Shown: in pieces, positions 11,120 through 49,076 of the stretch
Numbering within the stretch: the stretch's first letter is position 1
Layout of the letters: every line of letters starts with the position of its first letter
Assembly (NCBI GenBank): GCA_024654535.1
Contig: JANLHL010000038.1
Location: 315,824-379,823 of the forward strand
Reading direction: 5' to 3'
DNA: 64,000 bases
Origin: Candidatus Roizmanbacteria bacterium
Lineage (GTDB): Bacteria > Patescibacteriota > Microgenomatia > UBA1406
The notes under the pieces: generated by a model
What the model saw: the letters and a program-made list of their open reading frames with translations, nothing else
Told to the model about the DNA's origin: nothing
Database searches by the model: none
Made by a program: the position numbers and the translations under genes

Positions 11120-11170
11120 GTCAAAGTTAGTATGAGCGAACCTTTCCTATCTAAATTATGCAATTCAAAC

Positions 11171-11176
11171 TATAAT
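11171..11176 (+). promoter_or_regulatory. -10 box TATAAT, 6 nt before the ATG at 11183
   Basis: TATAAT-acatat-ATG. Confidence 0.5.
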
Positions 11177-11182
11177 ACATAT

Positions 11183-11677
11183 ATGCTGAGCGCAAAGAAC
11201 AGAAAACTACTTGTTTTTATTGTCATTGGTATTGCGAGTATTTTTTCTTTTTTTATTCCACAAGGCGAACTACAGAAAGCGAAAGTCATACGGGTTATAG
11301 ATGGCGACACAGTCGAATTGTCGAATCATAAACATGTACGCTACATTGGCATGAACACACCAGAAATGAACTTCAAAAGTAGCACACCAGAGTGTTATGC
11401 GAAAGAAGCAACTGATTTTAATAAGAAATTAGTACTAGGTAAATCAGTCTATTTGGGCAAAGATATTTCTTACGAAGACAAATACCACAGACTACTTCGG
11501 TATGTGTACGTGAAAAAAAATGACGGATCGAAATTGCTGGTCAATGAAGAGTTGGTGAAACAAGGGTATGCAACTATGTATATATATCCACCCGACGTAC
11601 GGCTTGCACTAAAATTTCTTTTTGCACATGTTGACGCACTCAGACAGGGAAAAGGGCTGTGGGGAGCTTGTCAATAG
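11183..11677 (+). CDS. Secreted/membrane-anchored thermonuclease (SNase) family nuclease
   Basis: TM anchor, then VIRVIDGDTVEL...VRYIGMNTPE...RLLRYVY, typical of micrococcal-nuclease-like proteins. The ORF-track start at 11108 is trimmed to the ATG at 11183. Confidence 0.8.
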   Translation: MLSAKNRKLLVFIVIGIASIFSFFIPQGELQKAKVIRVIDGDTVELSNHKHVRYIGMNTPEMNFKSSTPECYAKEATDFNKKLVLGKSVYLGKDISYEDKYHRLLRYVYVKKNDGSKLLVNEELVKQGYATMYIYPPDVRLALKFLFAHVDALRQGKGLWGACQ

Positions 11678-11815: not shown

Positions 11816-12232
11816 TTACGATGTAGTTTCTTTATGCTTCACGAGATATATTGAAAGTCCAAATATGATGAGCATTATTACTTGGCACGACATACATACG
11901 GGACATAATACGCGCTCCCTAAATATTTCAAGAAATGTAAGTCGTAAACAAAAAAGCATGCCGAACGTACTCATGCCTAAAATCAATCCACCCCACTTCT
12001 TAATTGATCCAAACAAGATAGCAATATAGCCGACCAGGCCGACAACAGCTACAGGTATACCAAATATTGTTGCGAGTGAACCTTTTGTCACTGCGTCGCA
12101 ATTGACAGTCGCATTTATCGCACAAAACTCACTTGGTACTGGTGCGAGGTAGTTATATAGAAGATAGATTGCGAGACCTATGCCAACAATAGATAATGCA
12201 GTGATACTTTTGTAAATAGTATTAATTTTCAT
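11816..12232 (-). CDS. Vitamin K epoxide reductase (VKOR) family membrane protein
   Basis: Four TMs, a loop cysteine pair (C..INATVNC) and a CPVC redox motif, plus IFGIPVAVVG. Confidence 0.7.
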   Translation of the reverse strand: MKINTIYKSITALSIVGIGLAIYLLYNYLAPVPSEFCAINATVNCDAVTKGSLATIFGIPVAVVGLVGYIAILFGSIKKWGGLILGMSTFGMLFCLRLTFLEIFRERVLCPVCMSCQVIMLIIFGLSIYLVKHKETTS

Positions 12233-21063: not shown

Positions 21064-22135
21064 TGAGTATGAATTGAGGAGAAACAACTAATTTTTTGTA
21101 ATCTCTCAGTTCTGTGAAGTGTATGCGGTAATTTTGTGCATTTCCCGCTAGTGAACGGACCGTCGGTATGAAAGCATCATTTTGGTGTAAAATAATACCT
21201 ACTCCAGCGTTTTCGAGTATCTGTGCATGTTTTTGCTGTTCGTCATTGGATGCAAATGGTAGTGGGATGAGCAATGAAGGGAGTCCATAGTATACAAGTA
21301 AAAAAAATGTGTTTGCTCCCACTCTCGTCAATGCGAGTTCTGCGTGTGAGAATAAATAGCCATGTTCATTGGGTGCTATAAAAGGGATAGGTATATAGTT
21401 ATCGCTTGCATATGTTTTCATTCGTTCATAATCGCCGTATTCACTTATCCCCAACTGATGCACTATCTGAAAATTTTTCGATAATTCAGGTAGATTGTTT
21501 TCAATGAGTACATTTATTTGGTGAGCACCACTACTTCCACCCATAACAAGAATGAGTGGTTTATTTGGTAGAGGAGTATACCACGATGGTTTTTTAACTG
21601 ATAAGAAGTTACTGTGGTAGGGATTGCCAGTAATAATGGCTGATTTGAAGTATTTTTCTGCCTGTGGAAATGCAACAAAAATTTTTCTTGCAATTTTCGC
21701 AATGAGAAGTGTTGCTTTTCCCGGTGATATAGTTTGCTCATGCAGATAGATTGGTATGCGCAAAACAAAAGCGCAAAGCGCTACGGGAACCGCTAAATAA
21801 CCACCAAACACTATTACTTTTTTTGGATGTGTCTTGTACAGTATTTTCCATGCTTCAATAACTGCACGTATAAATAGTGAAAGCTGTTTAACGATAGTAT
21901 TGTTCGATACTTTAGAGTTGAATCTTCCTGAGTCAAATGGATAAAAGGTGACACCAGAAATTCGTTTAATCAAAGCATGTTCTAAGGTTGGTGACGAAAT
22001 TCCGGTAAAAGAGTCAGTTCTTCCAATGAAAATTACCGGGATGTTCTGTTTTCTCAGTCCTTCCACAAGAGCATAGGCGGGTGAAAAATGCCCACCAACA
22101 ATTGCAACTACTTTGTTATCTTCGTTTTTTTTCAC
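21044..22135 (-). CDS. murG: UDP-N-acetylglucosamine--N-acetylmuramyl-(pentapeptide) pyrophosphoryl-undecaprenol GlcNAc transferase
   Basis: IVGGHFSPA N-terminus, VMGGSSGA and the C-terminal GT28 region, in dcw context. Confidence 0.9.
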   Translation of the reverse strand: MKKNEDNKVVAIVGGHFSPAYALVEGLRKQNIPVIFIGRTDSFTGISSPTLEHALIKRISGVTFYPFDSGRFNSKVSNNTIVKQLSLFIRAVIEAWKILYKTHPKKVIVFGGYLAVPVALCAFVLRIPIYLHEQTISPGKATLLIAKIARKIFVAFPQAEKYFKSAIITGNPYHSNFLSVKKPSWYTPLPNKPLILVMGGSSGAHQINVLIENNLPELSKNFQIVHQLGISEYGDYERMKTYASDNYIPIPFIAPNEHGYLFSHAELALTRVGANTFFLLVYYGLPSLLIPLPFASNDEQQKHAQILENAGVGIILHQNDAFIPTVRSLAGNAQNYRIHFTELRDYKKLVVSPQFILNEIVES

Positions 22136-23195
22136 TATAGCTAATTATATTAAACAATATACCAGATAAAATATAGAAGGTCAGTAGAGACGACCCACCG
22201 TACGAAATAAACGGTAGTGGAATACCAGTGAGCGGTAAAAGTTGTACCATAGCCCCTAAATTGACCAGACATTGAAATCCAATAATAAAGAATACTCCCG
22301 ACGCAAGAAGAAAACCAAGTCTATCCTTAATATGTTGTAAATGTTGATAAATGTACAGCAAAAAAGCTATGTAGATACTCACAATCAGTACGCTCCCCAC
22401 AAATCCGAAATTTTCTCCTATTATGGCAAAGATAGAATCGGTATGTGCCTCAGGTAAAAAAAGGAATTTTTGTTTTGATGATCCGAAACCGCTTCCCCAT
22501 ACTCCGCCTAACGATAGGGCAATATTTATTTGCTGTATGTGGTATCCAATACCTTGGGGATCAGCTTGTGGATTTAGAAACGTGGTGAGACGTTGTAGTC
22601 TATAAGGTGAAAACACTGCCAGCAGTAAAAAAGCTGTGGCAGCGAGTGGTATAAGTAACAGTCCGTGCTTAATTGGCGCTCCAGATACCATATATAAGAA
22701 CAACGCTATGCAACCGAGTATTGCCGCAGTACCTAAATCCGGCTGTAACATAACAAGTCCTATAATAAGCCCAGTCAATATAAGAAATGCAAATAGTCGG
22801 CTTCGTTCTTTGTAACTAAACCATGCAGAAAGATAGACAATCAAAGTTAATTTTGTTAATTCAGATGGTTGTATACGTATAGGCCCAATACTGAGCCAAC
22901 GGCTGGCGCCCAGCGCGGATGAATATAGACCTGGAATAAATACAAGGAGCAAAAGGACAATATTGATGACAAGGATTGGCAAAGATAGACTATAGAGACG
23001 ATGATAGTCAAAACGTGAAAAGAACCCAAAACAAACGAGTGCGAGGGCAAACCAGATCAGTTGATTGCGTACGAAATAGAGAGCATCTCCATAAGTGCTG
23101 GCTGCGTTTATTGAAGAAGCCTCATAAATCATAAATACACCGAGTGCAGTTAGTACAATTGGAAAAAATAACAAAAGAGAGCGTGACTTTGACAT
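22116..23195 (-). CDS. ftsW: SEDS family lipid II polymerase/flippase-like protein FtsW
   Basis: QPSELTK, QPDLGTA, LPEAHTDSIFA, PLPFISYGGSS. The start is trimmed to the ATG at 23195, after the mraY stop. Confidence 0.85.
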   Translation of the reverse strand: MSKSRSLLLFFPIVLTALGVFMIYEASSINAASTYGDALYFVRNQLIWFALALVCFGFFSRFDYHRLYSLSLPILVINIVLLLLVFIPGLYSSALGASRWLSIGPIRIQPSELTKLTLIVYLSAWFSYKERSRLFAFLILTGLIIGLVMLQPDLGTAAILGCIALFLYMVSGAPIKHGLLLIPLAATAFLLLAVFSPYRLQRLTTFLNPQADPQGIGYHIQQINIALSLGGVWGSGFGSSKQKFLFLPEAHTDSIFAIIGENFGFVGSVLIVSIYIAFLLYIYQHLQHIKDRLGFLLASGVFFIIGFQCLVNLGAMVQLLPLTGIPLPFISYGGSSLLTFYILSGILFNIISYSEKKRR

Positions 23196-23197
23196 AA

Positions 23198-24244
23198 TTA
23201 TTTTAAAAATGCAATCCAAAGACCGAAAATAGAACAGACTATTGTAATAAGCCAAAATCGAAATACTATTTTAGATTCACTCCAACCTTTTAGTTGCAAA
23301 TATAAGTGCGCTGGTGCAACTGGGAAAAATTTCTTTTTAAAATATTTTTTAACGGTTAATTGAAGGAGCGACGATGAAGCTTCCACAACAAATATAAAGC
23401 CGATGATAGGCAGTAAAAATGCTTTACCTAATAAAAGACCAATGACGGCAAACGCTGCCCCAAACGCAAGAGCCCCTGTATCTCCTAGAAATATGCGTGC
23501 GGGGAATACGTTGAAGTATAAAAATGTTAATAGTCCACCTATCCAAACTGAGAGCACTACAGAAAGAATAGTGTCAAGCACTGCGTGAGAAATAATCCAA
23601 AAAGTTAATAGGGAAATGAGTAGTACTCCAGATGAAAGGCCATCTAATCCATCAGTAATATTATATGCATTGGTAAAGGCGAGGATAGTAAAAGTAGCAA
23701 ATAAGACATATCCTATGCCTAGGTGCAGGGTGCCAAAAAAGGGGATATTGATGAATGATATTCCTAACCAAGAGTACATCCAATAGCTGATAATAAGTGC
23801 TATTGCCAACTGTATAAAAATTTTATGGCGCAATCTAAGTCCGTAGAATATTTCAGCGCCCTTTTCAATATTAAAAGTTTTTTTAATATCATCGAAAAGT
23901 CCAAGTAGTGCAAATGCAACGAGAGTGAATAATATGATCACTGTTTCTCTTGGTGCACTCTTGAATACTGAGATTACCGGGATACCGAAAAAATAGAACA
24001 GTGTCAGAAAGAGCATGGATAAAATAATTGTAGTGCAAACAACGAGGAAACCTCCTCCTACTGGGGTGCCAACTTTTTCTTTATGGAAAAAGTCAAATAT
24101 GGGGGCACGCAGATTAAATGGGTCTTTGGTCTTTTGTGCTTGACGTTGAAATTTGAGCTTATAGAGAAAGTCAATAAATGGAACCATTAAAAAAGAGTTC
24201 ACTACAAAGGAGAATATGACCATTCCTAAATATATTGAGTTCAT
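23198..24244 (-). CDS. mraY: Phospho-N-acetylmuramoyl-pentapeptide-transferase
   Basis: KVGTPVGGG, NAYNITDGLDGL, GDTGALAFG. Confidence 0.95.
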   Translation of the reverse strand: MNSIYLGMVIFSFVVNSFLMVPFIDFLYKLKFQRQAQKTKDPFNLRAPIFDFFHKEKVGTPVGGGFLVVCTTIILSMLFLTLFYFFGIPVISVFKSAPRETVIILFTLVAFALLGLFDDIKKTFNIEKGAEIFYGLRLRHKIFIQLAIALIISYWMYSWLGISFINIPFFGTLHLGIGYVLFATFTILAFTNAYNITDGLDGLSSGVLLISLLTFWIISHAVLDTILSVVLSVWIGGLLTFLYFNVFPARIFLGDTGALAFGAAFAVIGLLLGKAFLLPIIGFIFVVEASSSLLQLTVKKYFKKKFFPVAPAHLYLQLKGWSESKIVFRFWLITIVCSIFGLWIAFLK

Positions 24245-27529: not shown

Positions 27530-29623
27530 ATGAAACTCATTATTGTCGAATCGCCGACGAAAGCAAGAACTTTTGGAAAATTTCTTAAGGTAGGTGAGCT
27601 TGAGATAATTTCAAGCATGGGACACGTCAGGGATTTACCACAAAAAAAACTCGGGGTGGAAATTGAGAAGACGTTTTTACCGACATATGAAATCTTGCCG
27701 GGTAAAAAGAAGCTAATTGATGAAATAATTCGCAAAGCGCGACATGCAAAAGAAGTAATACTCGCAACAGATCCTGATAGGGAGGGTGAAGCGATCGCGT
27801 TCCACTTACGATACGTGATTCACGAGTCTGTACCGAAAGTAACATTTAAGAGAATAGTGTTCCATGAAATTACAGAAGAAGCACTGCAAGATGCTTTAAA
27901 AAATCCACGGGATATTGATGAGCGCTTATTTGATGCACAACAAGCGCGACGCATACTCGATAGACTTGTTGGATATACCATCTCACCATATTTGTGGAAA
28001 AAGTTTTCTAAATATTGGTTGTCGGCTGGTCGCGTTCAAACTGTTGCCTTGCGCTTTGTAGTAGAGCGTGAAAAAGAACGTGAAAAATTTAAATCTGTTT
28101 CGTATTATAGTTTTGAAAGTGAATTTAAAGTTCGGCAAGAATTGGTATTAGCACAGCTTGTTCGATTACGTGGAAAAAGTTTTTATACGAGTACCTCATT
28201 GTCACTGTTCGATGGTAAGTATACCTATAAGAGCTCCATAGTTACTTCAGAGGATGAAGCCCGTATAGAAAAAGAGAGATTAGAAAAAGAAGACTACTCA
28301 TTGAGCGGTGTTTCTGAAACGCTTGTGAAAAAAACTCCTCCTCCACCATTTACTACTTCTTCTTTACAACAGCATGCTTCAACAACGATGGGGTATAGTG
28401 CAAAAAAAACTATGAGAACTGCCCAGGCATTATATGAAAAAGGGTTGATTTCTTATCATCGCACAGATTCTACAACCTTATCTACTGCGTTTATTGAAAA
28501 AGTTCGTGATTACGTGAAAAATACTTTTGGCGATGATTATTTAGCAACAGGGGTACGAAATTATAAAACAAAAGTGAAAAATGCCCAAGAAGCACATGAA
28601 GCAATACGTCCTACTAACATAGTAACTACCCCATTGAATCTTAAAGATAGTACTCCAACAGATCAAGCCAAACTTTACGAGGCTATTTATAACCGTGCCC
28701 TTGCAACGCAGATGACCGACGCTACTTTCAAAAAGCAACTTTTGACGTTTATAAGCTCGCAGGAAGACGAGTTTACAGCAGAAGCACAGATCATGGTACA
28801 TCCAGGTTTTTTACGTTTATATCAGCAAAAAGCCCAAGAGATGTTATATTCTGTTGCGAAGGATGATGTTGTAGAGTTGAAATTACTTAATATGCTTGCA
28901 AAAGAAACCCAGTTACCACCTCAATATACAGAAGCAAGCTTAATAAAGTCTTTGGAAAAGAGGGGAATCGGTCGCCCTTCAACATATGCACCAATAGTAA
29001 GTCTTATTCAAGAGCGTCAATATGTGCGCAAACAAGATCGCGCTCTTTCGCCATCTGTGCTCGGTACTAAAATCGCTGATGTTCTCAGTGAGTATTTTGC
29101 AAAAATATTTGATGTAGATTTCACAGCTGGAATGGAAGAAAAACTTGATGATATTGGAACAGGGTCGTTATCGTGGAAAACAGTACTTACTGATTTTTAT
29201 GGTCCTCTTGAAATTCTTTTAAAAAAAGCATACGAAAATACTGAAAAGATACGCGTGGAGGAAAAAACAGATGAAGTATGTCCTAAGTGTAGTAAAAAAC
29301 TTGTGATTAAAATATCACGTTTCGGTAAATTTTATGCTTGTGAAGGATTTCCTACATGCAAATTTACCAAGCCGTATCTGCAAAAAACGGGTGTAGTATG
29401 CCCTCAATGTTCTAAAGGGGAACTGGTTATGAGATTCTCTAAGAAAAAGCGGCGTTTTTATGGCTGTGATAGATATCCTGAATGTGATTATACAAGTCTG
29501 TGGCTGAAGAAAACAGATGAGAATGAAGTGATAGACAGTAAAAAAAATAAAACAACTAAAAAAAAGCTAAAAAAGAAATCCGATCAGAAGAAAAGCGCTC
29601 CCCGCAAGAAAAAGAATAATTGA
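27530..29623 (+). CDS. topA: DNA topoisomerase I
   Basis: Toprim IIVESPTKA and DPDREGE, active-site region ISYHRTDS, two C4 zinc ribbons (CPKC..C..C and CPQC..C..C), and a Lys-rich tail. Confidence 0.95.
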   Translation: MKLIIVESPTKARTFGKFLKVGELEIISSMGHVRDLPQKKLGVEIEKTFLPTYEILPGKKKLIDEIIRKARHAKEVILATDPDREGEAIAFHLRYVIHESVPKVTFKRIVFHEITEEALQDALKNPRDIDERLFDAQQARRILDRLVGYTISPYLWKKFSKYWLSAGRVQTVALRFVVEREKEREKFKSVSYYSFESEFKVRQELVLAQLVRLRGKSFYTSTSLSLFDGKYTYKSSIVTSEDEARIEKERLEKEDYSLSGVSETLVKKTPPPPFTTSSLQQHASTTMGYSAKKTMRTAQALYEKGLISYHRTDSTTLSTAFIEKVRDYVKNTFGDDYLATGVRNYKTKVKNAQEAHEAIRPTNIVTTPLNLKDSTPTDQAKLYEAIYNRALATQMTDATFKKQLLTFISSQEDEFTAEAQIMVHPGFLRLYQQKAQEMLYSVAKDDVVELKLLNMLAKETQLPPQYTEASLIKSLEKRGIGRPSTYAPIVSLIQERQYVRKQDRALSPSVLGTKIADVLSEYFAKIFDVDFTAGMEEKLDDIGTGSLSWKTVLTDFYGPLEILLKKAYENTEKIRVEEKTDEVCPKCSKKLVIKISRFGKFYACEGFPTCKFTKPYLQKTGVVCPQCSKGELVMRFSKKKRRFYGCDRYPECDYTSLWLKKTDENEVIDSKKNKTTKKKLKKKSDQKKSAPRKKKNN

Positions 29624-30430
29624 ATTTTCGATAAACCCAGTTGAAGGTATCGCTTTTGGCGTTATTGTTTCTATATGTGTTATTTGAGTAGTGGGGATTC
29701 TTGTTGCAAGAGCCAATTGAGTGGGTTCTTGGGTTACTGCGTACGCAAGATATGTTGGTGCAACTGTTGGTGTGTGTGTACTAGATGTATTTGTATGAGT
29801 CGGTGAACTTGCAATTCGAGTAGCGGTGATAGTCTCTTTGGTTGGGGTGGCAGTTGGTGAAGGAGCTGTTGAAGGTGTTGGAGTACGTGAAAGCAAAGCT
29901 CGAAAACTTGAAGTCGGTGTTAAAGTAATGGGAGTCGATGTCTTTGTTGGAGATAGCGCTGAGTCATTGACAATTGTAATCGTTGGTTGTTTTGTAACTG
30001 TTGGCATACTCGTTGAATCGGTGGTTGCAGGTAGGCTATTAGTTTTTGTGGGTAAAATAGGCGCATTTTGTGTTGGTATGGTCGATGTGGGGTTTTGATT
30101 TGTTTGGGCACGAGGGATATATGTTATGTTGTTATTTCGGGTGAAAAGCACTACTGCCCCAACAAAAACGATAAAAATACTGACTATAGCGTAATATGCC
30201 ATCTTCAATTTTTGTTTATTCCTTGTTATGCTTATTGTTTCCTCATGTGCGTGTCTGTCGATGTTTTCGATAAATTTTTTTGGATCGACTACATAACTGT
30301 TTTGTTTAAGTGAAGGAATATTTGGTTTTTTGTGCTTTTTTTTGTATTTTAAGTATTGTACGATTTGGTAGAGTAGGGTACCGCTAATACCAATGAATGC
30401 TAGTATAGGAATTATTGTTGCAGTATTCAT
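29567..30430 (-). CDS. Thr/Pro-rich membrane/surface protein with a C-terminal IPSTGF + TM sorting-like signal
   Basis: Two N-terminal TMs, a ~150-aa T/P/S-rich stalk, and the C-terminus KAIPSTGFIENSIILFLAGSAFLLIGFLF. The last 57 nt overlap the topA 3' end on the opposite strand. Confidence 0.55.
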   Translation of the reverse strand: MNTATIIPILAFIGISGTLLYQIVQYLKYKKKHKKPNIPSLKQNSYVVDPKKFIENIDRHAHEETISITRNKQKLKMAYYAIVSIFIVFVGAVVLFTRNNNITYIPRAQTNQNPTSTIPTQNAPILPTKTNSLPATTDSTSMPTVTKQPTITIVNDSALSPTKTSTPITLTPTSSFRALLSRTPTPSTAPSPTATPTKETITATRIASSPTHTNTSSTHTPTVAPTYLAYAVTQEPTQLALATRIPTTQITHIETITPKAIPSTGFIENSIILFLAGSAFLLIGFLF

Positions 30431-30451
30431 ATATGTATTATGCCAAAATAA

Positions 30452-31768
30452 TCAATACAGTAACAGTATCATCCCCAGCAAACTAAACGTCGATGCAAGA
30501 ACGATGAGGAAATTATTTGAAAATCCTGTTGTTGGAATACTATTTTTCGCAATTATTGAGGTCGGCTGAAGGGTTGGTGAAACGGTCATTATATCAGTTG
30601 GCGTTGTAGGTGACGTTGGGCTACTTGACGGTATAGGTGTTGGCGTTGGATCTATGGATGATTCGGTTGGTATTGGCGTTATTGTCAATGTAGCAGAGGC
30701 AGTTGCGTCTCCTAGAACGCTTTCTCCATTTTTGCCGACATTAAATAACACACTCGTGCTTGCCTTTTCAATTTCGCTACTTACATTTAAGGTGTATGTC
30801 CCTGCAGTGAGGGCTGTTGTATTTTGGAACTCCCAGACACCATCTACGTTTGTCTTCACTGAGGTTTGGAGATGTATTGGTTCGATAGTTAACTGCAGAG
30901 TCGAAGATGCTTGTGCTATTCCTCTAAATCGTACAAATCGGGAAGGTATTACTGCTCCGTCTTGTGGGAAGGCTATCTGTAAATTTTTTAATGTAATTTT
31001 TTGAGTTTCACTACCGAGCACGTTCGGACTTGTTTTATCTTTCCCAAGGACTACCGATTGTAGCGGTGAAGTTTGGAGAAGTGTCGTTACTATATGTGAG
31101 GTGGTAACACCATCGGTGAAATCGATATAGACTGTCGTTGAATCATCAAGTGTTAACGAATTGCCATCCTTATCTTGTACCAAAGGGATGGCAATCATCC
31201 ATGAGCCGTCAGAACCTGAAACAGTAGTAAATACCTGCGATGTTGCTATGTGGGGTAATGTTAATGTTGCGAGTACACCCTGAGCGGGCTTTAGATTTTT
31301 TCCGACAACTTTACCGAATAGAGGAGAGTGGCCGGGAGATTTCTGTATTGATCCATAAGTCTGAAATAAGTACTTGGTACTTGTATACGTTTTTCCATTT
31401 ATTTGAATTGTAAAACTGTAACTAGTGTTAGTATCGAGGTTTGTGAGTGTTATATAGTGAGCTGTTCGTTTTGTTGGCTTTTGTGTATCTCGCGCATCAA
31501 ATGCAATCGATGATGGTTCAACCCCTTTTTTCCCGTACTGTACAAATGAACTTGCAGCTTGTATTGTTGTGAAACTGATGGTGGCCGATGCGTTCGTAGT
31601 ATTACTTACCGTAACATTTTCAGGAGGTGTAGATTGTGCTGCCTTCGAGTTTGTATTAAGACGTATGTTTCTCATGAAGAAAGACATACCAATAGTGAGA
31701 ACTATAAGAAAACTGTAAACGACGAGTGAGGGTAATCTTTTTTCTTGATGGAGAAAATAATAACTCAT
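30452..31768 (-). CDS. Surface protein (FN3-like, carboxypeptidase-regulatory-like and Ig-like domains, T/P stalk) with a C-terminal IPTTGF + TM signal
   Basis: N-terminal TM. PENVTVSNTTNASATISFTT...YSFTIQINGKTY is FN3-like. GKVVG...TVSGSDGSWMIAIPL is CarboxypepD_reg-like. The C-terminus is NSIPTTGFSNNFLIVLASTFSLLGMILLLY. Confidence 0.65.
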   Translation of the reverse strand: MSYYFLHQEKRLPSLVVYSFLIVLTIGMSFFMRNIRLNTNSKAAQSTPPENVTVSNTTNASATISFTTIQAASSFVQYGKKGVEPSSIAFDARDTQKPTKRTAHYITLTNLDTNTSYSFTIQINGKTYTSTKYLFQTYGSIQKSPGHSPLFGKVVGKNLKPAQGVLATLTLPHIATSQVFTTVSGSDGSWMIAIPLVQDKDGNSLTLDDSTTVYIDFTDGVTTSHIVTTLLQTSPLQSVVLGKDKTSPNVLGSETQKITLKNLQIAFPQDGAVIPSRFVRFRGIAQASSTLQLTIEPIHLQTSVKTNVDGVWEFQNTTALTAGTYTLNVSSEIEKASTSVLFNVGKNGESVLGDATASATLTITPIPTESSIDPTPTPIPSSSPTSPTTPTDIMTVSPTLQPTSIIAKNSIPTTGFSNNFLIVLASTFSLLGMILLLY

Positions 31769-31959
31769 TGTCTCTCCATTAACGTATTTAATACTGTCTT
31801 CCCTTTAATCTCACGAATTTCCATTTTCATACTACTGGAGTAATCTACTGTATATTTTTCATTTTTGTTTATGTGGTACACATCAACAAAAATCCATATA
31901 AGTATTGTAATAAAAATAGTGAGAGATATGATGAATAATTCTTTAGATGATAATTTCAT
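31765..31959 (-). CDS. Small single-TM protein (64 aa) in the PilN/PilO-like operon
   Basis: 4-nt overlaps at both ends with flanking genes. N-terminal TM LFIISLTIFITILIWIFV. Confidence 0.45.
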   Translation of the reverse strand: MKLSSKELFIISLTIFITILIWIFVDVYHINKNEKYTVDYSSSMKMEIREIKGKTVLNTLMERQ

Positions 31960-32498
31960 TTTGGAGCGTAGAAATATGAACTAATAAGCATGGGGGTTTT
32001 CAGCTGTGCAGATTCTGTTCCTTCCGCTTTGCCAAGTTGAATTTGCTCAACCGTAAAAATACGGGGACGTTGAAAAAGAAATCCAACAAATTTTTTAATT
32101 TGAGTATATTCTCCCTGTGTTGAAATAGAGATGGCTATAGGTGTAAGCGCATCAGCAGAGGAAGGTATTATTTGTTGTTGTTCAATAGAGAGCGAGTTGA
32201 TAGTGGCACTTGAACTTGCGAGAAGTTGTTTGATATCCGTTATGCGCATTTTTTGTGGGAGAGCCTTGTCAAGGACGTCTATGTTTTCTGCAAGAGTCAT
32301 ATAGGTATTTTGTGCTTTAATTATATTTTGAATTTTAATTTCTAGTGTTTTATCTATGTTTGTTAATTCTTCTTGTTCGTGAAATAAAGAGACTATGAGT
32401 TCTACGGAAGGTTTAATAGCAAATATAAGAAAAAATGACGTAAATAGCAGGAGAAGTGAAGCTGTTGAATAATTTTTGATTCGCTGTTTTAAATTCAT
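31956..32498 (-). CDS. PilO-like type IV pilus assembly protein
   Basis: N-terminal TM, a coiled-coil segment, then ISISTQGEYTQIKKFVGFLFQRPRIFTVEQIQL, which resembles the PilO C-terminal fold motif. Confidence 0.55.
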   Translation of the reverse strand: MNLKQRIKNYSTASLLLLFTSFFLIFAIKPSVELIVSLFHEQEELTNIDKTLEIKIQNIIKAQNTYMTLAENIDVLDKALPQKMRITDIKQLLASSSATINSLSIEQQQIIPSSADALTPIAISISTQGEYTQIKKFVGFLFQRPRIFTVEQIQLGKAEGTESAQLKTPMLISSYFYAPK

Positions 32499-33016
32499 GT
32501 TTGTATTTTCACATTGAATGTATATTTTCCTTCATCGATAGTAATGAGCTTAATGGCAACACTATTTTCTCCGAGTATTTTTTTAAGTCTTTTTTCATAT
32601 TTTTTAATATCTATTGCATTGTACGTAGTCCCTGATACTTCTACGGTATTATCTTTCAGCGAAAAGCTACTTAAGAGAACGGATGAGGGTACGTTGTCCA
32701 GTACTGTTGTGAAGAGTGTATACGTTGACTTTTGCGCAAGTAACAATGTGTCTATTTCTGTTATCTTTTTTGCCATTTTATTATTATTTTGTATAAGTGG
32801 CAAAGCGGCAATTATTATTTGGTTCTTTTGATCTATTCCTTCCTTCAAATCGACTATCCGTTGATCTAAAAGAATTTTTACAAAAAAAACTCCCAGAACA
32901 ACAAGCTCCGTTATAATAAGGATATAGCGAATGTATTGGTTAAGAAAATCCACAGCAACAGTGACAAATGCAGATTTTTTTCTTTCCAATAAATTAAATT
33001 TATAGGCTGTAGCCAT
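32495..33016 (-). CDS. PilN-like type IV pilus assembly protein
   Basis: N-terminal FNLL motif, then a TM and coiled coil, then LSSFSLKDNTVEVSGTT. The ATG at 33016 is preferred over the ORF-track TTG at 33040. Confidence 0.55.
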   Translation of the reverse strand: MATAYKFNLLERKKSAFVTVAVDFLNQYIRYILIITELVVLGVFFVKILLDQRIVDLKEGIDQKNQIIIAALPLIQNNNKMAKKITEIDTLLLAQKSTYTLFTTVLDNVPSSVLLSSFSLKDNTVEVSGTTYNAIDIKKYEKRLKKILGENSVAIKLITIDEGKYTFNVKIQT

Positions 33017-33067
33017 GCTATTATGGTAACCTTTTTTCAAGATCTAGTCTAGTGATTTATTGGAGAT

Positions 33068-33304
33068 TTATTTTTTGAGGAGCTTTGAGATGCGTGATTT
33101 GAGGCGATTCGCTTTATTCTTATGAATAATATTATTTTTAGAGGCTTTATCTATGTACGATATTGCTTTTTGTAAAGCTTCTTTTGTTTTTTTCTTCAAA
33201 AAAGACTGCATGCTATCACGCATTTTTTTCTGTCGCGTTTTATTCATTGCGAGCCTTTTTTTATCTTGACGTTGTTTCTTCTTTGCAGATGCTATGTTTG
33301 GCAT
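33068..33304 (-). CDS. rpsT: 30S ribosomal protein S20
   Basis: MPNIASAKKKQRQDKKR...IHKNKANRLKSR. Confidence 0.9.
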   Translation of the reverse strand: MPNIASAKKKQRQDKKRLAMNKTRQKKMRDSMQSFLKKKTKEALQKAISYIDKASKNNIIHKNKANRLKSRISKLLKK

Positions 33305-33329: not shown

Positions 33330-33338
33330 TGTCATAAT
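33330..33338 (+). promoter_or_regulatory. Extended -10 TGTCATAAT, 8 nt before the murJ ATG
   Basis: TGTCATAAT-tatacacg-ATG. It overlaps the divergent rpsT -10 box. Confidence 0.55.
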
Positions 33339-33344
33339 TATACA
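33337..33344 (-). promoter_or_regulatory. -10 box TGTATAAT for rpsT (leader ~30 nt)
   Basis: Minus strand reads cgTGTATAAT, interlocked with the murJ -10 box. Confidence 0.45.
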
Positions 33345-33346
33345 CG

Positions 33347-35023
33347 ATGTTTCGGCAAAGTCTACTACTAATGCGCAAGCTCTACGGGTTTTCCCAAAAG
33401 ACCTTATATGCTTCTACTGTAGTAATTATTGTAACAATGATAACAGCACGTTTGCTGGGGATTGTGAAATTGCGGATTTTGACGAGCTTCTATAGTAGTA
33501 GTGAGTTAGATTTGTACTTAGCTGCCTTTCGTGTTCCAGACTTCATTTTTGATGTGCTTGTAGCAGGTTCAATCAGCGCTTGTTTCATTCCTATCATCAT
33601 GGAAATGGAAGAGGATAAACAGCACGATAGGGTGTTTCCCTTTACAATTACACTTATTTCTATCTTTCTTCTTGTTTGGTTAGCGGTGCTTTTTTTGATA
33701 ATTCCGATTCGGTACGAATTATTTTCATTCTTATTGCGTGGTTATAGCATAGAAAAAGTACGTGTTGTGACTGATATATCTATGGTACTTTTAGTTGGTC
33801 AAATTCCATTTATGCTTCTCGGAAACGTATTCGGAGCTTTGATGCAGTCTCGAAAACAGTTTTTAGTCCCTGGATTGGCTCCTATTTTTTATAATCTAGG
33901 GATAATTCTTGGGATACTTATATTTTCACCAAAAATAGGTCTATGGGCGGCTGTGTATGGTGTTTTAATCGGCGCGTTCTTGTATATGCTGGTTGTTTTG
34001 CCGAGTATAGCTTTTTCGCACATACAATTTCCTGTGCACATCGTTTTTGATCGATATCTTCGTTCATTTTTTCGCTCATTTTTACCGAGAGCCTTTAGTG
34101 TCATCGCTACACAAATAGATGCTTCTGTTGACTTGTTATTAGCAACATTAAGAGGTCCTGGGGCATACTCTGCTTTTTATCTTGCGCAGACTTTGCAGAT
34201 AATTCCGGTGAGTTTTATGGGTACTGCAATGGCTCAAACTATTTTGCCTTTTTTTACTGATCTCCATGTAAAAAAGAACCATGCACGAATTATGGAGCAA
34301 CTGACACGTATTACACTCCTTATTTTTTTTGTATTGATACCAGTGGTTGCAGTTTTTACTGTGCTTCGAACGCCAATAATCCGACTTGTATATGGTAGTC
34401 ATAAATTTGATTGGGAAGCGACAGTTACGACGGCAACAGTTTTTTCTGTCTTTGCACTTTCAATACCGTTCCATACGCTTTACTATATCGTGACCCGCGT
34501 TTACTTTGCGCTTCACGATACTAAAACTCCGTTTGTTGTTGGAGTTATATCGACGGTAATGAATTCTCTATTGAGTTATGTATTTGTTGCAGTCCTTCAT
34601 TATCCCATCTGGTATCTGGCTCTTTCTTTTTCTGTATCTATTACCATAAATACGATTGTACTTTACTATTTACTCGTTCGGAGACTTGACCATATACAAT
34701 TTAGAACTATTGCCATAAGACTTTGTGGCATTATAACGATAGGTATAGTGATGGGGCTTGTCATGCTGGCATTTCGCAAATTACTCGATGGTTTAGTCTT
34801 TGATACAACGAGAACTTTACATGTATTTTGGCTCACATCAATTTGTGGGCTGATTGGAGCGGCTGTGTATGGGTATCTTGCATGGATTTTTATTCCTAGG
34901 GAATTTTCAGACTTATGGAACCTAATTCAACGTTTCTCTTTTTTGAAAAAAGCAATGAACGTATATATGAGATTATTTTTTAGTTATCCAGTGAAATCAC
35001 CACATGAAGAAAAATACGATTGA
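33347..35023 (+). CDS. murJ: Lipid II flippase MurJ (MviN family)
   Basis: 558 aa, about 14 TMs, with an MviN-like N-terminal pattern (SRLLGIVKLRILTSFY...). Confidence 0.9.
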   Translation: MFRQSLLLMRKLYGFSQKTLYASTVVIIVTMITARLLGIVKLRILTSFYSSSELDLYLAAFRVPDFIFDVLVAGSISACFIPIIMEMEEDKQHDRVFPFTITLISIFLLVWLAVLFLIIPIRYELFSFLLRGYSIEKVRVVTDISMVLLVGQIPFMLLGNVFGALMQSRKQFLVPGLAPIFYNLGIILGILIFSPKIGLWAAVYGVLIGAFLYMLVVLPSIAFSHIQFPVHIVFDRYLRSFFRSFLPRAFSVIATQIDASVDLLLATLRGPGAYSAFYLAQTLQIIPVSFMGTAMAQTILPFFTDLHVKKNHARIMEQLTRITLLIFFVLIPVVAVFTVLRTPIIRLVYGSHKFDWEATVTTATVFSVFALSIPFHTLYYIVTRVYFALHDTKTPFVVGVISTVMNSLLSYVFVAVLHYPIWYLALSFSVSITINTIVLYYLLVRRLDHIQFRTIAIRLCGIITIGIVMGLVMLAFRKLLDGLVFDTTRTLHVFWLTSICGLIGAAVYGYLAWIFIPREFSDLWNLIQRFSFLKKAMNVYMRLFFSYPVKSPHEEKYD

Positions 35024-44358: not shown

Positions 44359-47268
44359 ATGTCTGAAATCGTTATTCGGGGCGCACGTGTACACAATTTA
44401 AAAAACGTGTCCCTTACTATTCCAAAAAATAAACTCGTTGTATTCACCGGCGTTTCGGGATCGGGAAAGAGTTCTATGGCATTTGACACACTGTATGCAG
44501 AGGGGCAACGTCGATACGTTGAATCTCTTTCCTCCTATGCGAGACAGTTTTTAGGTATTATGGAAAAACCTGATGTAGACGCAATAGAAGGATTATCCCC
44601 CGCAATATCTATAGACCAAAAAACAGCTTCACATAATCCACGTTCGACTGTCGGAACGGTTACAGAAATATATGATTATTTGCGATTACTCTATGCGCGC
44701 GTTGGTTCTCCATTTTGTCCGAACTGTCATATAGAGGTGATCAGCATGTCTGTAGACGAAATTACACAGTCAATTATTAATGAAGTGACTACTGAAGTAT
44801 CGAAAGACAAATTGAAACCGCACGGTTTTTTTATACTTTCTCCGGTGGTGAAAAACAAAAGAGGTGAATTTGTAGAGTTATTTGACAACTTATTACACAA
44901 AGGATTTACACATGCTCGAATAGATGGGTATTTTTACGATATAGCTGAAGAAGATTTATTATTGTTCAAAAACAACAAACATACGATAGATGTGGTGATC
45001 GATAGGTTTCGAGTTGATAACGAAACGCTAAAGGATCAAAAAAAACATAAAGAATTAAATTCGCGACTTTTTCGCGCAATCGAAAATGCAACAGCACTTT
45101 CGGGAGGTATCGTCGTATTGGGGACCGTAGAGGACAGTGGTTTTGATTTGCCGACGAAGCCAAAAAAACTTTTAGAGCGAACATTTTCTGAGCAATTTGC
45201 CTGTCCGCAGTGTGGGCAAGCATTTACAGAGCTTGAACCCCGTCTTTTTTCTTTTAATTCTCCCATAGGTGCCTGCAAAGAATGCCGCGGATTGGGTGTG
45301 GTCATGCGAGCTGACGAAGAGAGGATAGTAAATAATTCACTTTCTATAGCAGAAGGAGGAGTTTTTCCGTTCAGTCGTATTATTTATTCGGATACATGGT
45401 TTGGTAGATTAGTAAAACAAGTGTTGGAGGAGTTTCATATAGATGCGAACGTACCGCTCAAAGCATTATCTCAAGAACAGAGAGACGTGCTGTTGTACGG
45501 AACGAAAAAGATTTTTCACGTGCGCGGTAGAAATAGAGAAGGTGCAATGACCTCAATACATGAACCGTTTCGTGGATTTGTGAAAGAAATTGAACATCGC
45601 TACTATGATGCCGCTGATTCTACTTTTGATATGGGGCGCTATATGAAAGAAGAGGTGTGTCCATTGTGTAAAGGCGCTCGTTTGAATGAGCTTGCAAGAA
45701 GTGTTCATGTGGGAAGTAAAAATATTGTTGAATTGTGCGACATGCCAATTTCACAGGAATTGACGTATCTACATGCACAAAAAGAAACGATGGGTGAACG
45801 AAGACTCCAAATAGCCCAACCTATTTTGAAAGAAATAGATTCACGTCTTTCTTTTTTAATGCAAGTTGGACTATCGTACCTTACATTATCTCGTCGCGCG
45901 AATACGCTTTCAGGTGGCGAAGCGCAACGTATACGACTTGCCTCACAGATTGGTACGGGGTTAACGGGTATTACCTACGTCTTAGATGAACCGTCTATTG
46001 GTCTCCATGCGAGAGATGTTTCTCGTTTACTGGATGCTCTAAAACATCTGCGAGATCTGGAAAATAGCGTTATAGTGGTCGAACATGATTGGGAAACTAT
46101 CTACAACGCAGATCATATTGTAGATTTTGGTCCTTATGCCGGTAAGCACGGTGGAGAGGTTATAGCACAGGGTACAAGGTCTGACATTGAAAATACAAGC
46201 GCCTCAATTACCGGGAGTTATTTATCTGGGAAAAAAACTATACCTATTCGTAGAAGCACTCTCAACACACCTTCGATGTTGGAGTTTATAGGATGTACTG
46301 AAAACAATTTGCAGAATATTTCTGTTTCTCTTCCGTTGAATCGTATGGTAGGAGTTACCGGAGTGTCTGGATCTGGAAAGTCAAGCTTATTACTCGATAC
46401 AGTCTATACCGTTATAAAAAATTCCATAGATCCCTATTACAAAGGTCAACTTGGAAAAATTAAAGATGTCAGAGGTCTGGCGCAGCTTGAACGGGTTGTA
46501 TTAATCGATCAGTCACCCATTGGGCGTACTCCTCGATCAAATCCCGCCACTTATACCGGAGTTTTTACTGCTATAAGAGAAGTGTTTGCGCTCACGCAAG
46601 ATGCAAAAGCGAGAGGATATAGCCCTGGTCGTTTTTCGTTCAATGTGCGCGGCGGAAGGTGTGAAAATTGTCAAGGTGCAGGAGTGATAAAAGTGGAAAT
46701 GCAATTTTTAGCCGATCTATATGTGACGTGCGATGTATGTAAGGGAAAACGGTATAACAGAGAAACGCTTGATGTTGTATATAAAGATAAAAATATTGCG
46801 GAAGTTTTGGCTATGACTGTAGAAGAAGCACTCGAGTTTTTTGAAAATAATGCGAAGATCAGTAAGGTCTTAATGGTACTAAACAGTGTCGGATTGGGAT
46901 ATATAGAACTGGGACAGAGCGCTCCAACACTATCTGGAGGTGAGGCACAACGTGTAAAACTCGCAAAAGAACTTTACACAAATGTCAATATGCACACCAT
47001 ATATATACTTGACGAGCCAACGACTGGACTTCATTTTTATGATGTGGATAAATTAATTTCAGTGCTTCGTCATTTGGTAGATCAAGGAAATACTGTATTT
47101 TTAGTTGAGCATAATCTAGATGTGATAAAAAACTGTGATTATGTCATAGATTTAGGTCCCGAAGGCGGCGATGAGGGAGGCTCTGTAGTATTCCAGGGGA
47201 GCATACAAGACATTCTTAAAAATACTGCTTCATACACAGGCAAGTATTTGAGAGAATATATGAAATGA
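44359..47268 (+). CDS. uvrA: Excinuclease ABC subunit A
   Basis: Two Walker A motifs (GVSGSGKSS twice), two LSGGEAQR signatures, and zinc modules (CPNC, CPQC..C..C, CENC..C..C). Confidence 0.97.
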   Translation: MSEIVIRGARVHNLKNVSLTIPKNKLVVFTGVSGSGKSSMAFDTLYAEGQRRYVESLSSYARQFLGIMEKPDVDAIEGLSPAISIDQKTASHNPRSTVGTVTEIYDYLRLLYARVGSPFCPNCHIEVISMSVDEITQSIINEVTTEVSKDKLKPHGFFILSPVVKNKRGEFVELFDNLLHKGFTHARIDGYFYDIAEEDLLLFKNNKHTIDVVIDRFRVDNETLKDQKKHKELNSRLFRAIENATALSGGIVVLGTVEDSGFDLPTKPKKLLERTFSEQFACPQCGQAFTELEPRLFSFNSPIGACKECRGLGVVMRADEERIVNNSLSIAEGGVFPFSRIIYSDTWFGRLVKQVLEEFHIDANVPLKALSQEQRDVLLYGTKKIFHVRGRNREGAMTSIHEPFRGFVKEIEHRYYDAADSTFDMGRYMKEEVCPLCKGARLNELARSVHVGSKNIVELCDMPISQELTYLHAQKETMGERRLQIAQPILKEIDSRLSFLMQVGLSYLTLSRRANTLSGGEAQRIRLASQIGTGLTGITYVLDEPSIGLHARDVSRLLDALKHLRDLENSVIVVEHDWETIYNADHIVDFGPYAGKHGGEVIAQGTRSDIENTSASITGSYLSGKKTIPIRRSTLNTPSMLEFIGCTENNLQNISVSLPLNRMVGVTGVSGSGKSSLLLDTVYTVIKNSIDPYYKGQLGKIKDVRGLAQLERVVLIDQSPIGRTPRSNPATYTGVFTAIREVFALTQDAKARGYSPGRFSFNVRGGRCENCQGAGVIKVEMQFLADLYVTCDVCKGKRYNRETLDVVYKDKNIAEVLAMTVEEALEFFENNAKISKVLMVLNSVGLGYIELGQSAPTLSGGEAQRVKLAKELYTNVNMHTIYILDEPTTGLHFYDVDKLISVLRHLVDQGNTVFLVEHNLDVIKNCDYVIDLGPEGGDEGGSVVFQGSIQDILKNTASYTGKYLREYMK

Positions 47269-49076
47269 GGCGTTATTTTTTCTTGATTATTGCAACGGTT
47301 TTTTTTGTACTTTCTGCATACGGCGTTCAGGCTTCCCCGTTTTTGTCCACCAGTCTTACTGATCGTTATGTTTTATCTGAGAGTTCTTCGGTGCGAGTTG
47401 AGAGATCCTTAACGTTTACCAATAGGCTGAGCGATCACGCAATAGAAAGTTACACAATGTTCTTTAGTAGTCAATCCACCCCTAAAAATATAGTTGTACA
47501 AGAGGATGGTTTAGAGGCATCATATGCAACGCGTCGAGAAAATGATTTATTGGCTCTTGTTGTCACTTTTAAAAATCCGGTGCAAGGTGTTGGAAAAGAA
47601 AAAAAATTGTTTGTCAGTTATGATTTCGATGGGCTAGTAAACAATCAGCAGGGATATAAGGAGCTCATGTTACCAGTAGATCCTAAGAATACAGAATACG
47701 AACAGTACGATATAGAAGTAGTTGCACCACGTGACTTTCCCACGTTAGGATTATCGAAACCAAGGGTAAGTACGGTAGGAGATCATACCTATCTATGGAC
47801 AAATGTGCAAACAATGTCTGAGCAGAGTGTTTATATCGCATTTGGCGCGCAGGCATTTTATACTGTAGAGCTTCACTATGCACTAAAGAATGAAGATGGT
47901 GTTCCTCATAGATATGAGATTCCTTTTATTCCCGATGGTGCATATCAAAAGGCATATATTGAGAGTATTGATCCTATCCCTGAAAAAACAAGGATAGACG
48001 AAGACGATAACATACTCGGTTCATACATTGTCGAATCCAATTCGGTTAAAAATATTACTCTTCAAGCGACCGTAGCGTTGAATTCTATTCTTCGACCTGA
48101 GTTGCAAACATACTTTCGTGAAAAATACAAAAAAATGGGCATGGGCAGATATCTAACACAAGAAAACTACTGGTCATTGCCGCAGAGCGTTGGCGAGTTT
48201 AAGACGTCAAAAGATATTTATTCGTATGTTGTCGACACGCTCTCATATGACACATCTCGCATTAATGGTAACTTACAGCGCATGGGTGCTGCGTGGATAG
48301 TACAGAATCCAAACAGGGCAGTGTGTATGGAGTATACAGACCTCTTTGTTGCATTGGCGCGTGAATCTGGTATAGGTGCTCGTGAAGTTATTGGGTATGG
48401 TGTTACCGGTGGAGATACTTCTCTTCCGCTGTCTTTTCTAGGTGATGTTTTACACGCGTGGCCAGAGTATTATGATACGGCGCGTGAAATATGGCATCCT
48501 ATTGATCCAACGTGGGGAGATACCTCTGGAGTAGATTACTATTCGTCGCTTGATTTGAATCATATTGCTTTTGTCTATCATGGTACGAGCGCGCTTTTTC
48601 CGCTTCCTCCAGGTGTTTATAAACTGAAACAAAATACGAAAGATGTCTATGTGCGTTCAACGACAACGATGCCTCGAGAAACAAAAATGCTTGTTGCAAC
48701 TGGAGAAAGACAACGCTTTACGTCGGGGAAGAAAAACGTACTAAAATTTGCAGTGCGATCTGAGTCGAATATCGTACTGTATGAGGTGCTCGTTGAGTTA
48801 AAAGATGAACGAGGTAGAACCGTTACTACGAAAAATATTCCTATTCTTGCACCCTTTCAGACTAAAGATATGGATATGGCCATCGATGTTTCACAGAACC
48901 TTATGTGGCACCGCGGTACGTATACTGTCGTTTCAGATGGAGAATCGGTTGGTACGATAGAATACGAAACATATAGCCGCATTATAGCTTTTCTTATTCG
49001 GTATTGGTATATAGTGAGTGGGATAGTTTTTGTAGGTTTTGTATATATTTTTAGTTCAAAAAAAACAAAAAAATGA
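47265..49076 (+). CDS. Transglutaminase-like (Cys-His-Asp core) protein with an N-terminal signal/TM and a C-terminal TM
   Basis: CMEYTDLFVALARESGIGAREVIGY...HAWPEYY...WHPIDPTW. ATGA overlaps with both uvrA and uvrC. Confidence 0.7.
   Translation: MRRYFFLIIATVFFVLSAYGVQASPFLSTSLTDRYVLSESSSVRVERSLTFTNRLSDHAIESYTMFFSSQSTPKNIVVQEDGLEASYATRRENDLLALVVTFKNPVQGVGKEKKLFVSYDFDGLVNNQQGYKELMLPVDPKNTEYEQYDIEVVAPRDFPTLGLSKPRVSTVGDHTYLWTNVQTMSEQSVYIAFGAQAFYTVELHYALKNEDGVPHRYEIPFIPDGAYQKAYIESIDPIPEKTRIDEDDNILGSYIVESNSVKNITLQATVALNSILRPELQTYFREKYKKMGMGRYLTQENYWSLPQSVGEFKTSKDIYSYVVDTLSYDTSRINGNLQRMGAAWIVQNPNRAVCMEYTDLFVALARESGIGAREVIGYGVTGGDTSLPLSFLGDVLHAWPEYYDTAREIWHPIDPTWGDTSGVDYYSSLDLNHIAFVYHGTSALFPLPPGVYKLKQNTKDVYVRSTTTMPRETKMLVATGERQRFTSGKKNVLKFAVRSESNIVLYEVLVELKDERGRTVTTKNIPILAPFQTKDMDMAIDVSQNLMWHRGTYTVVSDGESVGTIEYETYSRIIAFLIRYWYIVSGIVFVGFVYIFSSKKTKK

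Follow-up and report, generated by a model that had tools for sequence, protein, structure and literature searches.

To our knowledge, there is no settled account of how type IV pili get through the wall of bacteria that lack an outer membrane, and pili are believed to be what bacteria of the Candidate Phyla Radiation (CPR) rely on for taking up DNA and contacting hosts. The question is raised here by a 64,000-nucleotide stretch of DNA (the window) from a Candidatus Roizmanbacteria metagenome-assembled genome (MAG), in which PilN-like and PilO-like proteins are encoded together with exported proteins that carry sortase-type C-terminal signals. Five minus-strand open reading frames (ORFs) make up the locus, for a PilN-like protein (32495-33040), a PilO-like protein (31956-32498), a 64-aa protein (31765-31959), a 438-aa exported protein (gene 4, 30452-31768) and a 287-aa Thr/Pro-rich protein (gene 5, 29567-30430). 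All five, spanning 29567-33040, lie where a first-pass annotation of this DNA had placed them, and the three 4-nt overlaps that it reported were confirmed, each junction being an ATGA start/stop overlap; gene 5 starts 21 nt past the gene 4 stop codon. The locus codes for three bitopic membrane proteins and for two or three exported proteins that carry sortase-type signals; the set is widely conserved and translationally coupled, and a role in pilus alignment is the leading but unproven hypothesis for it.

The conservation of this set was followed through a scan of GTDB species representatives, which yielded 73 loci, all of them Microgenomates by gene content. Gene 4 of the window (100% identical to NUV65_05510) is itself absent from the contig collection, and 75%-identical relatives were used in its place. 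A gene 4 profile search of the representatives was swamped by giant Ig-repeat adhesins and gave 8 usable new full-length orthologues; for the locus search a 7-sequence clade alignment was used, a 26-sequence alignment being too diverse. Many of the module-bearing MAG records (e.g., L012, L014 and L017) carry the title 'uncultured Gammaproteobacteria bacterium', which is evidently either a mislabel or a placeholder. In every one of the 73 loci that has enough upstream sequence, gene 4 is preceded by rpsT (which encodes ribosomal protein S20), pilN and pilO, with an ORF of ~61 aa in the position of the 64-aa gene in nearly all, and gene 4 identity among these species-representative loci goes down to 24%. 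Close relatives show the identical five-gene order, and a second LPXTG-type protein also recurs with the module. The gene order, which the first-pass annotation had set down as a point to be checked, is thus conserved in 73 species-level genomes, including rpsT upstream, and the operon is a near-universal Microgenomates (CPR) envelope module tied to rpsT.

PilN, PilO and the small bitopic protein

The PilO-like protein (180 aa, 31956-32498, minus strand) has a transmembrane (TM) segment at residues 10-28 and scores 41.7 bits on Pfam PilO (PF04350), over model positions 8-143 of 145 (136 covered); both this score, well above the curated cut-off of 22, and the bitopic topology place it in the PilO family. 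In addition, a profile built from six orthologues matches the PilO structures of Myxococcus xanthus (3jc8_O, 5e-8) and Pseudomonas aeruginosa (2rjz, 5e-6). The PilN-like protein of the window reaches 20.1 bits on Pfam PilN (PF05137) against a cut-off of 22.8; its orthologues in loci L005 and L007 have precomputed Pfam PilN matches, that in L009 has a weak one, and the family profile matches M. xanthus PilN (3jc8 chain N) in register at E=5e-5. The protein has a cytoplasmic N-terminus and, by hydropathy, a TM segment at residues 32-50, and the AlphaFold (AF2) model (pLDDT 84) shows a disordered N-terminus, a long helix at residues 10-107 and, at the C-terminus, a beta-beta-alpha-beta-beta domain. 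Among PDB folds, the five that match this model best are all periplasmic domains of GspL proteins (EpsL/XcpY/PulL; TM-score 0.65-0.70), which are the type II secretion counterparts of PilN. The protein therefore combines an INLLP-type N-terminus, a single TM segment, a coiled coil and a ferredoxin-like external domain, the feature set of PilN.

The PilN of Thermus and Pseudomonas systems binds PilM through an INLLP-type N-terminal peptide, and residues 7-11 of the window protein read FNLLE, which we take to be a PilM-binding peptide of this type. A [IVF]NL motif is found near the N-terminus in 73 of 73 unique orthologues, many of which have INLLP itself. Since PilN keeps this docking peptide, a PilM-like partner encoded elsewhere would be expected. 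Taken together, the PilO score above the Pfam cut-off, the profile matches to PDB entries, the AF2 fold and the conserved N-terminal motif bear out the PilN/PilO assignment of the first-pass annotation and support the view that the two membrane proteins are PilN and PilO of the alignment (GspL/GspM-like) kind. The most probable start of the PilN-like gene is the ATG at 33016 (173 aa, 32495-33016, minus strand), in agreement with the NCBI annotation (NUV65_05525) and with all relatives; the frame can be extended to a TTG at 33040, the start chosen at first, so that the ORF stands and the start is moved.

The third bitopic protein (64 aa, 31765-31959, minus strand) has a TM segment at residues 9-27, followed by W....[DE][IV]YH and an external tail that is short and conserved, and it matches no Pfam or NCBIfam family significantly. 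The ORFs at the same position in the other loci comprise 74 unique sequences with a conserved consensus, and, judged from these sequences, the protein belongs to a real, conserved family.

The exported proteins and their C-terminal tails

Gene 4 (30452-31768, minus strand) encodes a 438-aa protein whose export is indicated by an N-terminal hydrophobic helix, seen in the AF2 model and in the orthologue family. The model (pLDDT 73) places this helix at residues 14-34, three beta-sandwich domains at ~50-137, 150-240 and 264-344, a disordered Thr/Pro stalk of ~70 aa at 349-418 and a C-terminal helix at 418-437. The description of a multidomain surface protein with a Thr/Pro stalk thus holds, whereas the FN3, carboxypeptidase-regulatory and Ig domain names once attached to it do not reach the Pfam thresholds (Pur_ac_phosph_N 28 bits against 30, Big_13 24.3 against 27, fn3 21.7 against 25, CarboxypepD_reg 11.3 against 32.3), and Foldseek returns only generic FN3/Ig tandems, in a list where the S-layer stalk protein SlaB also appears. 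Some 10 residues past the N-terminal helix there is a [KR]-Ala motif (K-A at aa 42-43), and its alanine, Ala43, is invariant in 26 orthologues and may mark a signal-peptidase site. Another conserved motif, GE.VLG[DE]AT / ATPSAT, marks the junction between the third beta-sandwich and the stalk (motif at aa 348-358, in the region that starts at aa 338-348, window 30725-30757) and is specific enough to recover loci as a search pattern; it could be a processing or glycosylation site.

Gene 5 (287 aa, 29567-30430, minus strand) encodes a protein with three hydrophobic segments in a TM scan; a Lys-rich loop separates TM1 from TM2, after which come a YIPRA motif, a Thr/Pro-rich region and the tail. 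Over its first ~110 aa it is homologous (HMM E ~1e-22 to 1e-26) to the fifth gene of other loci, which comes in two forms with a homologous two-TM N-terminal part. In type A, the form of the window, the two-TM part is followed by the Thr/Pro region and an LPXTG-type tail; in type B the fifth gene ends in a small globular part, and a sixth gene encodes a short Thr/Pro protein with LPETG, LPESG or LPQSG plus 22 residues. The 287-aa protein of the window looks like a fusion of the type B fifth and sixth genes. The YIPRA motif (aa 104-108) is conserved as [YF][IL]PRA in the type A gene 5 of the window clade, and together with the [KR]-Ala of gene 4 it may form a shared cleavage site, the use of which would separate the two-TM module of gene 5 from the Thr/Pro part.

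The two proteins end in related signals. That of gene 4 (aa 411-438, window 30455-30538, minus strand) reads IPTTG, FSNN, a hydrophobic helix and a C-terminal Tyr (ILLLY), and that of gene 5 (aa 261-287, window 29570-29650, minus strand) reads IPSTG, FIEN and a hydrophobic helix ending IGFLF; neither has a basic tail. The endings had been called almost identical. They share the hexapeptide IP[ST]TGF and a helix, but are only about one third identical overall (by eye) and fall into two families, one with the Gly followed by 23 residues ending LLLY (gene 4) and one with the Gly followed by 22 residues ending GFLF (gene 5). Among the real ORFs of the window, these are the only two that carry P-x-[TSA]-G plus a hydrophobic C-terminus, and P412 and G415 of gene 4 are at least 90% conserved in 26 orthologues of 20-78% identity. 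Both observations answer the concern, voiced with the initial description, that the similarity might be due to chance.

Across the gene 4 family the motif, placed 23-26 aa from the C-terminus in 75 of 76 unique tails and evaluated over 75 unique orthologue tails, is [P/L/I]-P-x-[T/S]-G. Relative to the Gly, Pro is found at -3 in 62/75 tails, Thr or Ser at -1 in 61/75 and P, L, I or V at -4 in 72/75, and the Gly stands exactly 24 residues from the C-terminus in 49 of them (range 23-28, with one at 31). The gene 5 tail family follows [LIM]-P-x-[TAS]-G plus 22-23 residues. The lack of a basic tail, which had been remarked on from the window alone, is real in both families: 64 of the 75 gene 4 tails have no K or R in the last eight residues, and K/R occurs in none of the 28 unique gene 5 tails. 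The supposedly invariant Phe after the Gly, by contrast, is present in only 9 of the 75 gene 4 tails and is confined to the window clade, which shows G-[FY] and conserves a helix with Tyr or Phe at its end.

The likeness of the window tails to sortase signals, proposed from the xPxTG core and the following helix, is substantiated by orthologues that grade continuously into canonical LPXTG. Canonical LPKTG, LPSTG, LPQTG and LPETG occur in the orthologues and in the second tailed protein, the gene 5 tail family includes LPKTG, LPETG and LPVTG, and distant gene 4 orthologues have an ending in which a helix and K/R come after LPPTG, LPRSG, IPEAG or VPTPG. One such orthologue (P0154; LPPTG, TM, RR) passes both Pfam PF00746 (23.5 against 20) and TIGR01167 (19.8 against 15.9). 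Additionally, when all ORFs of at least 90 aa in the ~1.4 Mb of loci were considered, 102 of the 104 LPXTG-like tails belonged to genes of the module, the remaining two being FtsW false positives. On sequence grounds, the window tails thus appear to be a clade-local variant of the LPXTG sortase signal that lacks the charged tail, rather than a signal of a new kind, and it is because of this missing tail that curated LPXTG models miss proteins of the gene 4 and gene 5 type.

Two side observations concern the motif itself. FtsW (window 22116-23255; L001:18573-19652) contains, in its C-terminal region, LPLTG, a hydrophobic stretch and KKRR, and matches a naive LPXTG regular expression as a false positive. 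Ile at -4 in both tailed proteins is seen only in the window clade (the window, L001, L010 and L012-L015), other clades having mostly PP.[TS]G in gene 4 and LP.[TSA]G in the second protein; this could reflect a shifted sortase specificity or simple shared descent.

Whether a sortase accompanies the module was the next point that the first-pass annotation had raised, and the answer is yes near the module in 9 of the 73 relatives and no within the window. Sortase homologues lie ~7-11 kb downstream of gene 4 in these nine loci, as well as in L083-L085. The homologue of L042 (L042:18052-18774) scores 93 bits on Pfam Sortase and has LGHS...TLITC...R, i.e., His, Cys and Arg in place; it passes the generic sortase model only, and none of the reported class C-F or GN models. 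The sortase gene forms part of a conserved run (VanW, a solute-binding protein, an unknown ~700-aa protein, sortase and a class A penicillin-binding protein (PBP)), and VanW is found at a matching distance in 18 loci, which suggests that the VanW-sortase arrangement is spread more widely than the 10-kb flanks reveal. A sortase search retrieved 1812 relatives at E <= 1e-10. Among the matches listed, the few sortases that bear a source name come from Roizmanbacteria, Gottesmanbacteria or other Microgenomates, and none of the 120 listed of the 1812 belongs to this MAG. The window clade (L010-L014), which has the same synteny as the window, shows no sortase within 10 kb either. This sortase family occurs in nearly all Microgenomates and is patchy elsewhere in the CPR, according to the survey by Meheust et al. 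(2019), and a sortase is likely to be present in this genome as well.

Two candidates were set aside along the way: matches to a TLxTC regular expression in the loci mostly belong to an unrelated conserved ITLGTC protein, not a sortase, and contig P0278, considered as a proxy for a sortase just beyond the window start, is of a different synteny type. In 38 loci (L005:7887-8360 and 37 others), a conserved protein of 150-180 aa is encoded directly upstream of rpsT, ~2 kb upstream of gene 4, with an N-terminal TM segment and a ITLGTCSSGTCVYH motif; it does not occur in the window and has no significant Pfam or NCBIfam match. It was matched by a sortase regular expression but is no sortase.

Proposed role and competing explanations

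The reading that we favour, with a probability of roughly 0.55, is that the operon, a conserved Microgenomates module, encodes proteins with sortase-type tails that are anchored in the wall as an accessory to the alignment complex of type IV pili. PilN and PilO would act as bitopic alignment proteins, translationally coupled to the 64-aa bitopic protein, and a PilM-like partner encoded elsewhere would dock on the INLLP-type peptide of PilN. The two exported proteins, one with three beta-sandwiches on a Thr/Pro stalk and the other Thr/Pro-rich and fused to a two-TM N-terminal module, would most likely be cleaved after the Thr by a housekeeping sortase of the Microgenomates family, encoded outside the window, which would link both to peptidoglycan so that their stalks span the wall. 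Thus anchored, and presumably in physical association with the membrane proteins, they would accompany the PilN/PilO complex across the cell wall. For a type IV pilus machine whose envelope lacks an outer membrane, they could provide a collar, tether or guide on the wall side. PilN and PilO would serve a single such machine, whose PilM and ATPases are encoded elsewhere. The ideas of a reduced pilus-alignment module and of episymbiotic attachment, put forward in the initial description, are conjectural. Type IV pili have been described as near-universal in CPR genomes, and in a complete Microgenomates genome PilM, PilB, PilC, PilT, PilD and pilins are reported at one locus, with no PilN/PilO listed (PMC7143001), which fits the supply of PilN and PilO from a separate locus such as this one.

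If this is correct, the operon provides a concrete candidate protein set for the wall crossing of monoderm pili, in which PilN/PilO are coupled to predicted wall-anchored proteins in all Microgenomates species sampled, and the tailed proteins are probable conserved substrates of the near-ubiquitous Microgenomates sortase. Many LPXTG-type signals work, or at least persist, without a charged tail; such tail-less signals are missed by current models and matter for the annotation of CPR surface proteins.

Several points weigh against this reading. The window tails fail the curated LPXTG models: on PF00746 (Gram_pos_anchor), which has a cut-off of 20, gene 5 scores 12.6 bits and no match is reported for gene 4, and TIGR01167 matches neither protein. 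The positively charged tail is absent from both, and Schneewind's work on protein A is reported to have shown that staphylococcal substrates lacking this tail are not retained for cleavage. Within each of the two families the sequence of the hydrophobic segment is conserved, which would also fit permanent membrane anchors, and the co-variation of the two tails within the same genome is not significant (0.214 against 0.203, with 411 of 5000 permutations at or above the observed value). As the initial description had stated, the 64-kb window contains no sortase, exosortase-like enzyme, PilM, PilB, PilC, PilT or prepilin, a result upheld by Pfam scans of the main ORFs of at least 100 aa, the annotation of L001, tblastn with two sortases and motif scans; Staphylococcus aureus SrtA as a query and the TLxTC expression likewise found nothing there. 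Nor do pilM, pilB, pilC, pilT or prepilin genes occur within 10 kb of the module in 83 loci, so that it is the homology of PilN and PilO by which the module is linked to pili; the hallmarks of a type IV pilus locus, an adjacent pilM with pilB, pilC, pilT, pilD and pilin genes nearby, are seen neither in the window nor in these loci. The neighbours are mostly cell-wall genes, namely MurJ and the dcw cluster in the window and LCP (LytR-CpsA-Psr), VanW, PBP1 and sortase elsewhere.

The points that concern the tails would be accommodated if the C-terminal helices were permanent, uncleaved membrane anchors and P-x-[TS]-G no more than a conserved helix cap or linker at the surface of the membrane. 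In favour of such anchors are the lack of basic residues in most gene 4 tails and all gene 5 tails, the conservation of the helix within each family, the scores of the window tails below the LPXTG cut-offs, and the C-terminal TM anchors proposed for PamR, PamC and PamD of the Pam system in the same bacterial group. Against them, two unrelated protein families have one pentapeptide in common, at a set spacing from the C-terminus, and many tails are canonical LPETG or LPKTG. Moreover, relatives encode a sortase close to the module, the enzyme is present nearly throughout the group, and the tailed module proteins are the only candidate substrates in ~1.4 Mb of module-flanking DNA. We therefore hold uncleaved anchors to be unlikely.

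The points that concern the gene neighbourhood bear on another explanation, in which proteins of the PilN/PilO fold scaffold a cell-wall, surface-layer or division complex and the PilN peptide could dock an actin-like protein such as FtsA instead of PilM. None of the 83 loci has a pilus core gene next to the module, the module has a housekeeping-like linkage to rpsT, and it lies among wall and division genes: MurJ, MraY, FtsW, MurG, FtsA and FtsZ in the window and, directly after the module in ~37 loci, an LCP gene at +1.3 to +3.4 kb from the gene 4 start (L005:12072-13109, minus strand), in addition to VanW, PBP1 and sortase. The presence of SlaB in the gene 4 Foldseek list would also suit a surface-layer function. 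Yet by profile and by fold the best matches are to PilN and PilO, and the motif specific to PilM binding has been kept; type IV pili, near-universal in CPR, need PilN/PilO, and the complete Microgenomates pilus locus mentioned above lists PilM without them. On this balance, a scaffold outside pilus assembly is a serious alternative but seems improbable to us, to much the same degree as uncleaved anchors.

An extended form of the favoured pilus-accessory reading would make the tailed proteins and the 64-aa protein the wall-spanning half of a monoderm CPR pilus machine, a sortase-anchored collar or conduit that takes the place of the PilP/PilQ of diderms, with the tail-less signal and the unclassified sortase as a dedicated, co-inherited pair whose principal substrates are the proteins of the module; we consider this extension doubtful. 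A new signal processed not by a sortase but by an exosortase, archaeosortase or rhombosortase type of enzyme (the PGF-CTERM, PEP-CTERM and IPTL-CTERM signals being of this sort, and a PGF-CTERM-like one having been suggested first) could draw on the G-[FY] of the window clade, on its conserved helix with a final Tyr or Phe and on the missing basic tail, but was rejected as very improbable, given that the window proteins match none of the CTERM-type NCBIfam models at E <= 1, that no exosortase-like protein was found in the window, that Phe follows the Gly in so few tails and only in one clade, that the motif is LPXTG-like across the family and that sortase genes lie beside the module in relatives.

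The remaining features of the locus concern its expression and its surroundings. rpsT (33068-33304, minus strand; Pfam Ribosomal_S20p on orthologues) adjoins the module upstream, with a gap to pilN of only ~50 nt and no convincing terminator in between, and rpsT and the module are probably transcribed together. Upstream of rpsT, a consensus scan gives a promoter-like TAGACT-16-TATAAT (33337-33364, minus strand; 10/12 matches), which is suggestive only, as promoter-like sites are not enriched over shuffled sequences. At the other end, the 3' end of gene 5 overlaps the convergent topA by 57 nt. In the window clade the LCP gene lies ~7 kb upstream instead of downstream and is absent from the window. 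Elsewhere in the window, a VKOR homologue (11816-12232) adjoins a staphylococcal-nuclease-like gene (11108-11677), VKOR being a protein that work on CPR bacteria has tied to the MdbA-type formation of disulfides in pilins and secreted proteins, and a transglutaminase-core protein of 603 aa (47265-49076) is inserted between uvrA and uvrC, with frames overlapping or adjacent.

Comparison with known systems

The first two genes of the module resemble the type IVa PilM-PilN-PilO systems of M. xanthus, P. aeruginosa and Thermus, as well as GspL-GspM, in having adjacent pilN and pilO genes, bitopic products and an INLLP-type N-terminus, and the window PilN shares with type IVa PilN and GspL the coiled coil, the ferredoxin-like external domain and the profile and fold matches. 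Unlike type IVa alignment loci, the module has no pilM, pilP, pilQ or core pilus gene nearby and is linked to rpsT; it also adds the 64-aa bitopic protein and the sortase-type surface proteins, which have no counterpart in the alignment systems described so far. By its position right after pilO and its beta-sandwich-rich envelope product, gene 4 recalls the PilP/PilQ of diderm bacteria (or the PilW of Thermus). This analogy is by position only: there is no sequence or fold match to PilP or the secretin, and the predicted anchoring is to peptidoglycan instead of the outer membrane.

The tails are like the LPXTG signals described by PF00746 and TIGR01167 in having Pro at position 2, Thr/Ser at position 4 and Gly at position 5, followed by a hydrophobic helix, and the proteins are like Gram-positive LPXTG proteins in their Pro/Thr-rich stalk before the motif, their N-terminal export signal and the sortase in related genomes. 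They differ in position 1, which is Ile in the window and Pro in most gene 4 orthologues, in the absence of a charged tail and in a distance to the C-terminus fixed at 22-24 residues; furthermore, the window tails score below curated cut-offs, and the sortase of relatives passes the generic model only.

A CPR-specific system that also deserves comparison is the Pam pilus, in which PamR is described as having tandem FnIII domains and a C-terminal TM helix, with homologues in Roizmanbacteria (Troman et al. 2026, bioRxiv 10.64898/2026.03.03.709456). The exported proteins of the module share with PamR the Ig/FnIII-like domains, the C-terminal hydrophobic helix and the restriction to CPR. The pam operon is described as adjoining ATP synthase genes and encoding PapD-like chaperones and no PilN/PilO, whereas neither PapD-like chaperone genes, donor-strand or other pilin-like genes nor an ATP synthase neighbourhood is seen beside the module in the window or the 83 loci; a Pam pilus reading was set aside on this gene content, the comparison being by description, not sequence. 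No description of this module, of a PilN/PilO-LPXTG linkage or of tail-less LPXTG signals in Patescibacteria was found in the searchable literature. PilN, PilO and LPXTG-type signals are each of known kinds; what is new is a lineage-wide operon that joins them, with an atypical form of the signal.

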